From positions 2,207 to 66,206 of the forward strand of contig JBARCX010000199.1 of NCBI GenBank assembly GCA_049794535.1: DNA of 64,000 nt, in the 5' to 3' direction. Positions within the stretch are counted from its first letter, which is position 1, and the number at the start of each line of letters is the position of its first letter. A program made the translations under genes and the position numbers. The notes beneath the pieces are model-generated. The model was not told where the DNA came from. It saw only the letters and a list, made by a program, of their open reading frames with translations, and made no database searches. Of the stretch, positions 2,288-5,702 are shown piece after piece. The stretch comes from Rhodanobacter sp. (GTDB lineage Bacteria > Pseudomonadota > Gammaproteobacteria > Xanthomonadales > Rhodanobacteraceae).

Positions 2288-4327
2288 TCAGTGTTTCTCG
2301 TCGTTCCCGCGACTGGGCTGACTTTGCGTATGCGCGGGCGGGTGGCTATCGCCACGGGGCGCGGAGGGTTGTTGTTCGGTCCGGTAGGGGGCAGAGCGTT
2401 CGGTGGGCTGGTCGTACGACTGCGGCGTGGACTCTCGGTAGGCCTGCGCCGGTACGTTGTCGTGCATGCGGCGGGCGGCTTCGTAACGCTGCTGGTTTTG
2501 TTCGGTCTGTTGTTCGGCTTGTTGCCGTTCGGCCTGCAGGGCCTGTTCTTGTCGCGCCTGCTCCTGCTGGACTTGAGTGGGGCTGGCGCGCTCGAAACGT
2601 GGCACTTGCGGCAGGCCCGAAGTGGGGAGTTCGGCACGCGCGCGATCTTCGTCGGGGCTACTGATGAAGCTCACGCCAGGGCGTTGCGTGTTCTCAGGCG
2701 GTGCATGGCTAGCCGATGCCGGTTCGATGCCGCGTGAACCACTCGCTATGCCACCGTTTGCTGGCTGGGCTTGGTTGTTGAACGCCGAGGCCGAAGCCGG
2801 TGCTGGTGCTGCGTGGGTTGTCAGCACTCTTACCCGATTGGTAATGCTTGGCGGCGCAAGGCCTGCCGTGGGTGAGGCATGGCTGACGGTCGGCATTTGG
2901 CGTGCGAGTACTGGGCGCTGGAAACCACCCGTTGATAACGAGCCCGCCTGCACGCGCGGTTGCGCCAGGCTAGCTGCCGTGGGTGGCAGGTTGATACCGC
3001 GTGCTAGCACCACTGCCGTCGTGATCTGGTGCAGATCGACCTGCACCAGGTTGCGTTGCACCGTGCCGGCATTGGCGAAACTTTGCCCGGAGATGGCGGT
3101 GAAACCATGCGGCGCATTGCGATTGGCGTAGTTGGTATTCGGCACGGCTTGGCCGCTGCGGAAGGCCGTGTAGTGGCTATTGATACTGGCGAAAATCGCG
3201 CTGCGGTTGCCAGTGATATTGGTCAGGTTGATGCGGCTGTAATAGTTGCGGCTGGCGCGATACCACGGGTTATAGATCTCGCCGGGGCCGAGCGGAAACC
3301 AGCCCACGGGGCCCTTGCCGATGCCGACAAAGGCGACCAGCGCTGGCGCATACACAGGGCGTTGCCGGCGCGGCCCGGGAATCCAGCCCCAGGCACCGTG
3401 GATGAAGGCCCAGCGGCCATAGTGATAAGGCGCAAAGCCCCAGGGCAGATCATCGACCCAGGTCCAGCCCCAGGGTGAAATCCAGACCCAATGGCCAAAG
3501 CGGTAAGGGGCCCAGCCGACGGCAACGCCTACCGGGAACCACACGGCGCCGTAGTCGGGCTCGGTCTGCCAATCACCGTAGCTGTCCAGATCCTGGTAGC
3601 CGACTACGTCATCAGAAACGTATTGCGAGGCGGCGGATTGCGCATCGCCCTGATCGCGCTCACTGCACCATGCATCGAAGGCATCGCCGCTACCGATGTC
3701 AGTGATCATCAGATTGTCGAGCGTCGAATCGCCGAAGTCATAACTGCGGCCTGCCGTTACGTCACGATGGGCGTTGTTTTCGCCGTACACGGTGGCGTTG
3801 CCGTTGAACACCGTGACCTGAGTCGATTGGCCATCACCGCTGATGTCGACGCGAAATGTACCTGGCTGATCGACCACCAGAGCCAGGGTTGGCGTGTCGA
3901 TCTCGTAGCTCTGGCCCGGATCAAGCTGACGCACCGTCAAGTTGAGCGTGCCCTGGCTCAGTTCGATCTGCGCCAGTTGATCGCTCAGCGTAAGAAAGCC
4001 GAAGTCGGTGCCGCCGGCGAGGCGCAGTTCACTGCCACCTAGTTCAAGCTCGGCGCGACCATCAGCACCGGTGGACAGCCGGTCGCCCGTCGTTAGCGGT
4101 CGGTTGATGCTGGCCTCGCTCCACTCGGTCGCCCCGGCGGGCATGAGGCCCAGGTCGCCGTCCACATATGACAGCCGCGCCACGCGGCCGGGTGGATCAC
4201 CTGCGTCGTTGCCGGTAGGGGCGCTCTGGGCGTTCACCCAGCCTGATGTGGCACACAGGAACATCGCGACGACTACGCCTAACCAGCGATAACGCATGGA
4301 AGGCAGCAAACAGGCTAGCGCGCGCAT
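2288..4327 (-). CDS. secreted FecR-domain / DUF6600-like protein with a Q/E/P-rich C-terminal tail
   Basis: Signal peptide MRALACLL..GWVNAQS. FecR-like block GRVARLSYVDGDL..GDRLSTGADGRAELELGG. W/G/P-rich block WAPYRFGHWVWISPWGWTWVDDLPWGFAPYHYGRW. Low-complexity tail QQEQARQEQALQAERQQAEQQ. Confidence 0.6.
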   Translation of the reverse strand: MRALACLLPSMRYRWLGVVVAMFLCATSGWVNAQSAPTGNDAGDPPGRVARLSYVDGDLGLMPAGATEWSEASINRPLTTGDRLSTGADGRAELELGGSELRLAGGTDFGFLTLSDQLAQIELSQGTLNLTVRQLDPGQSYEIDTPTLALVVDQPGTFRVDISGDGQSTQVTVFNGNATVYGENNAHRDVTAGRSYDFGDSTLDNLMITDIGSGDAFDAWCSERDQGDAQSAASQYVSDDVVGYQDLDSYGDWQTEPDYGAVWFPVGVAVGWAPYRFGHWVWISPWGWTWVDDLPWGFAPYHYGRWAFIHGAWGWIPGPRRQRPVYAPALVAFVGIGKGPVGWFPLGPGEIYNPWYRASRNYYSRINLTNITGNRSAIFASINSHYTAFRSGQAVPNTNYANRNAPHGFTAISGQSFANAGTVQRNLVQVDLHQITTAVVLARGINLPPTAASLAQPRVQAGSLSTGGFQRPVLARQMPTVSHASPTAGLAPPSITNRVRVLTTHAAPAPASASAFNNQAQPANGGIASGSRGIEPASASHAPPENTQRPGVSFISSPDEDRARAELPTSGLPQVPRFERASPTQVQQEQARQEQALQAERQQAEQQTEQNQQRYEAARRMHDNVPAQAYRESTPQSYDQPTERSAPYRTEQQPSAPRGDSHPPAHTQSQPSRGNDEKH

Positions 4328-4534: not shown

Positions 4535-4608
4535 GCGGGTGTAGCTCAATGGTAGAGCTGTAGCTTCCCAAGCTACTGACGAGGGTTCGATTCCCTTCAC
4601 CCGCTCCA
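4535..4608 (+). tRNA. tRNA-Gly (anticodon CCC)
   Basis: Cloverleaf readable by eye: acceptor GCGGGTG/CACCCGC, D arm GCTC-AATGGTA-GAGC, anticodon arm GTAGC-TTCCCAA-GCTAC, T arm GAGGG-TTCGATT-CCCTT, and an encoded CCA. Confidence 0.93.
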
Positions 4609-4695: not shown

Positions 4696-5160
4696 ATGGC
4701 AACCACGGATATCGATCTTTATCGTTCGGTCATGGGTGGCGACTTTAAGAGCATCAAGGCCCGTGTTTATCCCGGTGATGGCGTGCTCTACCCTCGTTGG
4801 GAGTCGACCCAACATTTCAGCAAGAAGCTCGGCAGGATGGTGACCAGCCAAGCCGATGTCACCGTTGTGGTCGGCGATGGTGGCCCGGAAGTGCTACCCG
4901 AGGGCGGCACCTCGCTGCACGACGTTTCCGGCTGGTTCCCCTCGAAGGAATTTTTTATCCCGCAGGGAACCGAATACTCGGATGAAATAAGTATTCGCAA
5001 GGATTCCAAGCAGAAGACCAGCCCATACAACCCCCTACTCAAGGGCTATCACTACCAGCTTGAACCGCGCACACGGATGACCGTTTTGGCATTCAAGGGC
5101 GCGCTGGACAACATGGCGCGGGCCGCGGTTGCGAGGCAGTGTGAGCTGGCCAAGGGCTGA
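4696..5160 (+). CDS. Tse2-like (ADP-ribosyltransferase-fold) toxin candidate
   Basis: 154 aa from MATTDIDLYRSV, with an AGGAGG RBS at 4684..4689. Blocks LYRSV, GGTSLHD, FFIPQGTE, GYHYQL and C-terminal LDNMARAAVARQCELAKG match my recollection of P. aeruginosa Tse2 (158 aa). Local GC is lower. Not verified by search. Confidence 0.55.
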   Translation: MATTDIDLYRSVMGGDFKSIKARVYPGDGVLYPRWESTQHFSKKLGRMVTSQADVTVVVGDGGPEVLPEGGTSLHDVSGWFPSKEFFIPQGTEYSDEISIRKDSKQKTSPYNPLLKGYHYQLEPRTRMTVLAFKGALDNMARAAVARQCELAKG

Positions 5161-5194
5161 GTCGGCGGTACTCCATCCTCGGCGGAAGAGCCTT

Positions 5195-5477
5195 AGAGCC
5201 TGTTTGATATCTCTGAGTAGCCCGCGTTGCTCTTGAGTGGCCTTCAGGCGGTAGTGCGTGGCGCAGCGTCTGACTGGCCGTCAGATCAAGCGGGGCGCTG
5301 CCGCCTGAAGGCCACTCAGGAGCAACCCCATCCTTAATAAATGCAGGGGCCGGATCTGTTTGCACCCAGTCCTGCGTCATCATTCGGTCGTGTACCGACG
5401 TACACTCCCTCATTCTTCCTTGGCCTGCGTGCAAACAGCTTCCGGCGCGGGCCACTCAGAGATATCAAACAGGCTCT
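5195..5477. repeat. nested inverted-repeat element (MITE-like or structured RNA) between the toxin and immunity ORFs
   Basis: Outer arms 5195..5226 and 5446..5477 are reverse complements (32 bp, 1 mismatch; the outer 24 bp are perfect). Inner arms 5227..5251 and 5301..5325 are reverse complements (25 bp, 1 mismatch). Confidence 0.75.
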
Positions 5478-5480
5478 GAT

Positions 5481-5702
5481 ATGCCAGAAATCAGTAACCA
5501 GACACTCGTCATCGCGATCCAGGCGGTTGCATCGGAAATCCGTGCGCTGCGCGAGGCCGTGGCCAGTGGTGAGGCCGAAGTCGAAGAGTATCAATTACTC
5601 GACGATCGTCTTCGAGCGGCGGAGGATCTTGAGCGCGCCTATGAGATTGCCGCGCGGACGGTGATCAATCTGCCGCCCTACGACGAACTGATTGCGGGTT
5701 GA
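5481..5702 (+). CDS. Tsi2-like acidic helical immunity protein candidate
   Basis: 73 aa, net charge about -9, predicted all-helical. QTLVIAIQAVASEIRAL and LPPYDELI resemble my recollection of Tsi2 (77 aa). Positioned downstream of the toxin candidate. Confidence 0.5.
   Translation: MPEISNQTLVIAIQAVASEIRALREAVASGEAEVEEYQLLDDRLRAAEDLERAYEIAARTVINLPPYDELIAG

Follow-up and report, generated by a model that had tools for sequence, protein, structure and literature searches.

An IS5-type MITE has very probably separated a tsi2-like immunity gene from its Shine-Dalgarno sequence in Rhodanobacter

The window, which is the whole 64,000 nt stretch of Rhodanobacter sp. DNA analysed here, comes from a draft assembly (434 contigs, 4.63 Mb) that is 94% complete. 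Close to one end it carries a tse2-like toxin gene and a tsi2-like immunity gene, in the following order:

4535..4608, plus strand: tRNA-Gly(CCC) gene (ARAGORN; Rfam tRNA, 72.3 bits)
4696..5160, plus strand: tse2-like toxin gene (PF18648, ADPRTs_Tse2, the Tse2 ADP-ribosyltransferase toxin; E 3.4e-13), stop codon 5158-5160
5184..5190, plus strand: GGAAGAG, probable former Shine-Dalgarno (SD) sequence of tsi2, now 290 nt from the start codon
5481..5702, plus strand: tsi2-like immunity gene (PF21643, Tsi2-like; E 9.6e-10), ATG at 5481

The toxin ORF is open from 4663, and the codon-usage gene caller placed the likely start at the ATG at 4696, which we favour because orthologues align from residues 9-12. 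These orthologues are 59-86% identical to the Tse2-like protein, the closest being found in Dyella and Rhodanobacter. The start of tsi2 (MPEISNQ...) was confirmed by tblastn, in which nine loci aligned from residue 1 onwards with 65-85% identity. When the Tsi2 protein was used in an exact look-up for sister strains with or without the insertion, no identical protein was on record. The tRNA-Gly(CCC) gene lies approximately 90 nt upstream of tse2, so that the toxin-immunity pair sits at a tRNA gene; tRNA genes are common integration sites for islands. The sheath gene of a type VI secretion system (T6SS), TssC, is encoded in the genome (E 5e-136), and given this T6SS the Tse2-Tsi2 pair is plausibly in use. 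With a sheath encoded and an uninterrupted toxin ORF, the cell presumably still needs tsi2.

An earlier note had reported that tse2 and tsi2 are 320 nt apart and that the gap holds a 283 bp nested inverted repeat, the right arm of which ends 3 nt before the tsi2 ATG; both distances held when the coordinates were checked. The parts of the element are:

5193..5195, no strand: left copy of the target duplication, TTA (assigned from the TNA flanks of the family and the perfect duplications of the relatives' IS)
5195..5477, plus strand: copy of the repeat element interpreted here as a MITE, 283 bp by the coordinates of the earlier note; the element proper, GAGCC...GGCTC, is 5196-5476, and the copy is included in the 32-copy alignment A1
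5195..5226, plus strand: left terminal inverted repeat (TIR), the 5' arm of the outer stem, of which the first 19-20 nt are an IS5-type end
5226..5326, plus strand: hairpin A (arms 5226-5257 and 5295-5326), an optional module that is missing in some family members
5330..5345 (approximate), plus strand: AT-rich insert of approximately 15 nt, ATCCTTAATAAATGCA (alignment A1 columns 154-172)
5348..5447, plus strand: hairpin B, the conserved core of the family, with stem GGCCGGATCTGTTTGCAC / GTGCAAACAGCTTCCGGC
5376-5383 and 5411-5422, plus strand: conserved loops of hairpin B, CGTCATCA and CATTCTTCCTTG, respectively
5390-5405, plus strand: small covarying hairpin GTGTAC-CGAC-GTACAC within hairpin B
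5446..5477, plus strand: right TIR, the 3' arm of the outer stem, which contains AGG at 5471-5473
5477..5479, no strand: right copy of the target duplication, TGA, with one mismatch to the left copy

A repeat finder returned the outer arms (5195-5226 and 5446-5477) as 32 nt with one mismatch, 97% complementary and 219 nt apart, and when the sequence was read directly their outer 24 nt were perfect, as had been stated. The inner pair is also real, and the 25 nt with one mismatch that had been described fall inside a longer pair of 32 nt (5226-5257 and 5295-5326; 91%). A third pair of 17 nt (5356-5372 and 5422-5438; 88%), which the earlier note did not list, was found by the same program. The lone mismatch in the outer stem lies at 5219 versus 5454 (alignment column 25/282), where the left arm has the A of GTAGCC and the right arm the C of GGCCAC. 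Most copies of the family keep this mismatch, which therefore belongs to the element and does not reflect decay of the copy at tse2-tsi2. When folded as RNA, the 283 nt gave -186.7 kcal/mol, compared with -100.5 +/- 5.1 kcal/mol for 200 dinucleotide shuffles (z = -16.8), none of which was as good, and the predicted structure is Y-shaped, with the outer stem closing two long hairpins. The palindrome is thus far beyond what is expected by chance.

The element belongs to a dispersed family. With the 283 nt as query, BLAST returned 52-54 matches in the genome, and an nhmmer search with a profile built from 32 copies returned 50; these correspond to approximately 38 loci, 15 of which are full length (266-284 bp). 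BLAST alone identified 13 full-length copies in this genome with identities of 73-87%, plus many partial ones. All of the copies in this genome are intergenic. Partial copies lie at several contig ends, as repeats break assemblies. The earlier note had seen no second copy in the 64 kb window, and none was found there in profile and end searches, though there are many elsewhere in the genome; the BLASTN comparison with the whole genome and its relatives that it had proposed gave the multiple copies that a MITE predicts. A chance palindrome, or an artefact of assembly at this locus, might have been suspected in a draft fragmented into 434 contigs, but neither the stability of the fold relative to the shuffles nor the thirteen further full-length copies inside contigs of the same genome, together with dozens in the complete genomes of relatives, agrees with it. 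That explanation is vanishingly improbable and is effectively refuted.

Outside this genome, the element was found in 12 of the 24 Rhodanobacteraceae genera, with up to approximately 19 scored matches per genome, and in 0/16 genomes from other families of the order. No BLASTN match was returned when the element was compared with a plasmid collection. The copies in the Rhodanobacter genome are 76-93% identical to their nearest relative and appear from this divergence to be old, while those in the related genome G004 are 97-99% identical and represent a recent burst. In the 32-copy alignment (A1; 13 copies from this genome and 19 from eight relatives), the AT-rich insert divides a subfamily of 282-284 nt from one of 266-269 nt.

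The ORFs that overlap the element had no Pfam match. One candidate, a small protein on the minus strand (MTQ..QTDPARRV..), was rejected: it is open in only 16/32 copies and its frame is broken in the rest, its codon-position values (0.51/0.61/0.63) show neither periodicity nor an excess at the third position, and the compensatory changes in the stems alter residues on both arms.

All copies start with GAGCCTG... and end with ...CAGGCTC, with xNA before and TNx after, and TIRs are present in 33/33 of the full-length copies listed. The terminal 18-20 nt (GAGCCTGTTCAA..TCTC) match the ends of IS5-family insertion sequences of 848-851 bp in related genomes. The 851 bp IS in G020 (17 hits) and the 848 bp IS in G071 have the ends AGAGCCTGTTCAAAGTCTC, and two of the G020 copies are flanked by perfect duplications, TAA and TCA. 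An 849 bp IS in a Xanthomonas campestris plasmid, with a 78%-identical transposase, has the ends GAACCTGTTCACGATCTT and a TAA duplication. The IS in G020 includes two overlapping ORFs, a DUF4096 orfA (PF13340) and a DDE orfB (DDE_Tnp_1/DDE_Tnp_1_2, PF01609/PF13586), which match the NCBIfam model NF033580 (transpos_IS5_3, IS5 family) with 92 and 160.7 bits, respectively. In the alignment, 9/32 copies have a perfect TNA pair (TAA, TTA, TGA or TCA), and the middle base agrees in 19/33. At tse2-tsi2 the duplication matches at 2/3 positions (TTA/TGA). It had been reported that no target-site duplication was visible, but an imperfect one is present, with TTA (5193-5195) and TGA (5477-5479) flanking GAGCC...GGCTC.

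The MITE resembles the IS only over the terminal 18-20 nt, and the internal 230 nt have nothing in common with the IS. Derivation of the internal sequence from an IS by deletion therefore failed as an explanation, and the core appears, from these comparisons, to be of an origin unrelated to the IS, the ends alone being common to both. The ends themselves differ within the family. MITEs in G004 match the end of the G071 IS at 20/20 positions, copies in the Rhodanobacter genome of the ...TTTACGATCTTT type resemble the end of the Xanthomonas IS, and variants with a further type of end, AGAGCCTATCCTCATAGTCC, carry the same hairpin B core. Hence, the ends of several IS variants are found on one and the same non-IS core. 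Variants that lack hairpin A, on contigs C280, C358 and C191, also have the same hairpin B core.

No partner IS was found in the 94%-complete genome, which contained neither a hit to PF13340 nor such a pair of ends 700-1700 bp apart. Two candidates were rejected. An IS5-like transposase on contig C17 is flanked by GAGCCTG/CAGGCTC words that match no further than 8 nt, and its ends are unrelated; a solo end at C415:6223 precedes a citrate-synthase-like ORF and is not part of an IS. As this genome lacks the partner IS, the copy at tse2-tsi2 is probably immobile now. Across the relatives, the presence of MITE and IS is uncorrelated: G020 has the IS without the MITE, and G012 and G016 have MITEs without the IS. 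In another relative, G021, a related IS whose ends differ (AGAGCCTGTCGTCATGAGGT) gave 25 hits.

Other short elements in the same genome have the same ends (AGAGCCTGTTCAA..TCTC) and TAA flanks around a different core (C415:7590-7747, C187:5999-6122, C343:5363-5643 and C105:6156-6435). They measure 124-158 bp and 280-281 bp, and from their sequences at least two further MITE families appear to use the same IS-type ends in this genome. Mini-palindromes of 27-58 bp, each amounting to hardly more than two abutting ends of this type, were also seen (C191:3116-3166, C83:17471-17522, C142:9707-9759, C89:13697-13754 and C96:3421-3447) and may be deletion remnants or minimal elements.

The insertion at tse2-tsi2 can be read against loci that lack it. 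Nine orthologous tse2-tsi2 loci were found, in Dyella acidisoli, D. ginsengisoli, three Rhodanobacter and four MAGs, and the element is present in 0/9, in answer to the call in the earlier note for a comparison with loci lacking the element. In these loci the spacer is 28-44 nt and includes an AGGAG-type SD, AGGAG/AGGAA, located 5-6 nt before the ATG/GTG and aligned with the GGAAGAG at 5184..5190. To the left of the element the sequence is ...GGAAGAGCC-TTA, and to the right it is TGA-T-ATG. With the element and one 3 nt copy removed, GGAAGAGCC-TNA-T-ATG is obtained, in which the SD-to-ATG spacing is exactly that of the orthologues. The restored spacing indicates that the MITE entered between the SD and the tsi2 ATG, 1 nt before the latter. 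The claim that insertion left tsi2 with no recognisable SD is therefore only partly true: the old SD has indeed been displaced, but the end of the element supplies AGG (5471-5473) 7 nt before the ATG.

Two of the MAGs in which tse2 was located differ from the usual arrangement. Pseudomonadota bacterium GFS_4079 has two tandem tse2-tsi2 pairs approximately 2 kb apart (L038 921-1637 and 3001-3727). In a Dyella MAG (L037 3001-3478) the tse2 match is split across frames (3001-3099 and 3101-3478), which suggests a frameshift or a sequencing error.

MITEs are defined as small elements with TIRs and duplications, without a transposase, and with a stable hairpin (PMC3184786). The present family is of this size, is non-coding, has TIRs in common with an IS, is dispersed in many copies, and has both filled and empty sites. 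The MITE half of one of the two readings in the earlier note is supported by the copy number, by inverted termini that match those of IS5-family IS, by the TNA flanks and by the nine empty orthologous loci. We conclude that the element is very probably a non-autonomous IS5-type MITE with IS-derived ends that was moved in trans and inserted before tsi2. Its 19-20 nt ends would be those of a short two-ORF IS5-family IS that duplicates TNA, an IS5-type transposase would have mobilised it in trans, and the element would have entered a T-N-A lying 1 nt before the start codon of tsi2, parting the old SD from the ATG. As an element the MITE is unremarkable; what is unusual is how awkwardly it is placed, with the ribosome-binding site of a T6SS immunity gene on one side and the start codon on the other.

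The strong hairpin potential and covarying arms could also point to an element of REP/REPIN type that a RAYT (Y1) transposase moves, or to some other hairpin-dependent single-strand transposon. REP sequences end in GTAG, and GTAG is conserved in the left arm of the element only (GTAGCC, versus GTGGCC in the right). Against this, the ends match those of a DDE-type IS5-family IS over 18-20 nt, at up to 20/20 positions, the TNA flanks are as in that IS, and a length of 266-284 bp with three stems is unlike the 20-40 nt of REPs in inverted pairs. We consider a REP/REPIN-type origin highly improbable.

The fold is conserved across the MITE family. The consensus from alignment A1 has 94 pairs, 49 of which include compensatory double changes; paired cells make up 96.9%, and in 291 cells both sides are changed, values that 0/500 shuffles reached. 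In a control in which the partner was slid by 1-3 columns, 32-46% of cells were paired and 17-22 pairs had double changes. Covariation peaks at positions 9-28 of the outer arm and at the base of the hairpin A stem, which is hypervariable but compensated (as many as four or five types of pair at a position), and the small hairpin GTGTAC-CGAC-GTACAC also covaries. Subfamilies that carry the ends of different IS variants account for part of the covariation in the arms, but not for that in the small hairpin and in hairpin A. In hairpin B, the loops (CGTCATCAC and CTTCTTCCTTG) are nearly invariant in the alignment, which covers nine genomes from different genera. The nested inverted repeats are thus a conserved Y-shaped fold of the whole family and are not specific to this locus. 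The earlier note had set a mobile element against a structured RNA with covarying arms as exclusive alternatives, but the two go together here: this is a mobile family with strong covariation in both the arms and the inner hairpins. On the aligned copies, the element appears to be both mobile and structurally constrained.

This constraint raises the question of a role for the host. The element could once have been mobile and now be a co-opted structured RNA, its fold held under host selection for intercistronic processing, stability or translation control, and tuning Tse2:Tsi2. Stems that vary yet pair, together with nearly invariant loops in nine genomes, are the pattern of a functional RNA, but hairpin A is dispensable and there was no Rfam match. 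In a search of Rfam 15 with the window copy and 20 others, only sub-threshold matches to generic microRNA-precursor hairpins were returned. The subfamilies with different IS-variant ends account for the covariation in the first approximately 20 nt of each arm, and compensated changes can arise in active master lineages prior to insertion, or by hairpin-templated repair, without benefit to the host.

Orientation bears on the same question. With flanking genes called using a codon-usage model, copies in tandem-gene contexts are co-oriented with the genes in ratios of 8:3 in this genome and 24:11 in the relatives (32:14 in total, p = 0.011), and the plus strand folds slightly better than the minus strand (-147.7 versus -139.5 for the consensus; per-copy mean difference -3.0 kcal/mol, p = 0.03). 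Both favour a co-opted RNA, but the orientation bias is modest, and it is reversed in G021 (1:5). In that genome, five of the six copies between tandem genes (L118, L136, L140, L141 and L143) are anti-oriented. A separate strand test, of G:U versus A:C pairs (229 versus 54), was discarded as biased, since the structure had been predicted on the plus strand; it is the comparison of both strands that gives the small plus advantage. At roughly half of these tandem sites, the upstream gene has its TAA/TGA stop codon at the TNA duplication itself (distance -1 to +1), for example at C319:31957, C106:14415, C247:3661, L100, L103, L108, L116 and L130. Insertion on a stop codon regenerates the stop and leaves the whole intergenic space filled by the element. 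We attribute the coincidence to a TNA target in a genome of 59% GC.

The age of the copies is also relevant. The copies in the Rhodanobacter genome, old as they seem to be, are 97% paired, with approximately three broken pairs per copy, and mismatches in the flanking duplications are approximately 10 times more frequent per position than broken pairs, which favours a fold kept by host selection. However, an apparently recent, near-identical copy in G004 also has a mismatched duplication (GTA/TAA), so that duplication mismatches cannot be read as age, and a test of duplication decay against stem decay was set aside when it gave no clear correlation. L105 in G012 and L125 in G014 are copies from two genera at a single site, flanked left and right by orthologous sequence, and their arms differ by at least four compensated double changes. 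These changes would fit maintenance of the fold by the host, though the site may instead represent independent insertions at the same TNA; either this or concerted evolution after insertion would explain it. A second site with orthologous flanks is filled in two genera (L138 in G014 and L124 in G018). Overall, co-option of the fold as a host RNA is an unlikely explanation. A wider proposal is comparably doubtful, namely that the family is a mobile RNA module in which the fold and the hairpin B loops are kept after insertion, that copies within operons, many of them exactly on the stop codon of the gene before, act in intercistronic processing or translation control, and that the copy at tsi2 uncouples and resets the toxin:immunity ratio through cleavage of the 32 bp outer stem.

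For the MITE that we favour, consequences for expression of tsi2 can be computed. In a full co-transcript, P(unpaired) was 0.00 at positions -14..-5 relative to tsi2, and the mean over -20..+13 was 0.23. Without the left arm this mean rose to 0.66-0.77, with the AUG itself open, and for the reconstructed empty site it was 0.45, in a reconstruction that is one C short. In silico, the outer stem would therefore fully bury the region before the tsi2 ATG, except in transcripts whose left arm has been cut or is missing. Between 4400 and 5900, neither a sigma-70-like promoter nor an intrinsic terminator was detected, and by eye only weak -35-like words were seen, at the ends of the element. The other reading in the earlier note, that RNase III cuts a double-stranded RNA stem and so sets the toxin:immunity ratio, is at most plausible, judged from the 24+8 bp stem and the computed burial. 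The element would be co-transcribed with tse2 and tsi2, and in the intact co-transcript the 32 bp outer stem would bury the ribosome-binding region of tsi2. Immunity could still be made if the stem, a canonical substrate of RNase III type, were cut, or if some transcripts lacked the left arm, and after either the terminal AGG of the element might serve as a weak SD.

These observations matter in several ways. For annotation, the element is to be treated as a repeat family and not as a locus-specific regulator, and the family accounts for approximately 38 intergenic hairpins and several contig breaks in this genome. The locus is also a natural experiment, in that the SD has been taken from an immunity gene, the loss of which gene should be harmful if the toxin is made. 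With this SD gone, either tsi2 has to be expressed in some other way or tse2 has to stay silent. The family joins one covarying core to several IS5-type ends and lands frequently on TAA/TGA stops, and it offers a tractable case for asking whether MITE hairpins are conserved for transposition, repair or RNA function. No description of the family was found in a literature search of limited scope for its terminal sequence or for a Rhodanobacteraceae MITE, and it is an undescribed member of the bacterial MITEs.

The genes that flank the element match the Tse2 and Tsi2 Pfam families of the Pseudomonas aeruginosa pair, but here the pair is split by 320 nt owing to the MITE. Short IS5-family elements of 800-1050 bp with GA/GAG ends and a 2-4 bp duplication of TNA type are those that we take to be the IS1031 and IS427 groups of ISfinder. 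Like such short two-ORF IS in the relatives, the element has the same terminal 18-20 nt and TNA flanks, but it lacks a transposase and is unrelated to them over its internal 230 nt.

Among known MITEs, the closest parallel is Nezha with ISNpu3 in cyanobacteria, a bacterial MITE whose partner IS occurs in other species (PMC3184786). Both are small elements without a transposase, with TIRs that are identical or nearly identical to those of an IS, short duplications (imperfect at tse2-tsi2) and a predicted hairpin of high stability; orthologous sites occur both filled and empty, and the partner IS is found in other taxa only. Unlike Nezha-type MITEs, the present family has a short two-ORF IS5-family partner, a TNA duplication and a core unrelated to the IS, and it has three stems, one of them optional, and several TIR variants on the same core.

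The stems of Correia elements are cut by RNase III, which alters expression of neighbouring genes, and these elements have TA duplications. Such cleavage is the model behind the RNase III reading of the tse2-tsi2 copy. In both cases MITEs lie beside or between genes and their TIRs form long stems, though co-transcription is only predicted here. The sequences are unrelated, and no promoter was found in the present element, whereas Correia elements (CREE/nemis, 104-157 bp, in Neisseria) carry promoters and an IHF site (PMC3184786). In the Bacillus cereus group, the dispersed bcr1 repeats have short direct repeats, and compensatory changes keep a cruciform-like RNA (PMC3184786). Although bcr1 belongs to another phylum, is approximately 155 bp with a 5 bp duplication, has no known IS partner and has been shown to be transcribed, compensatory base changes preserve structure in both families.
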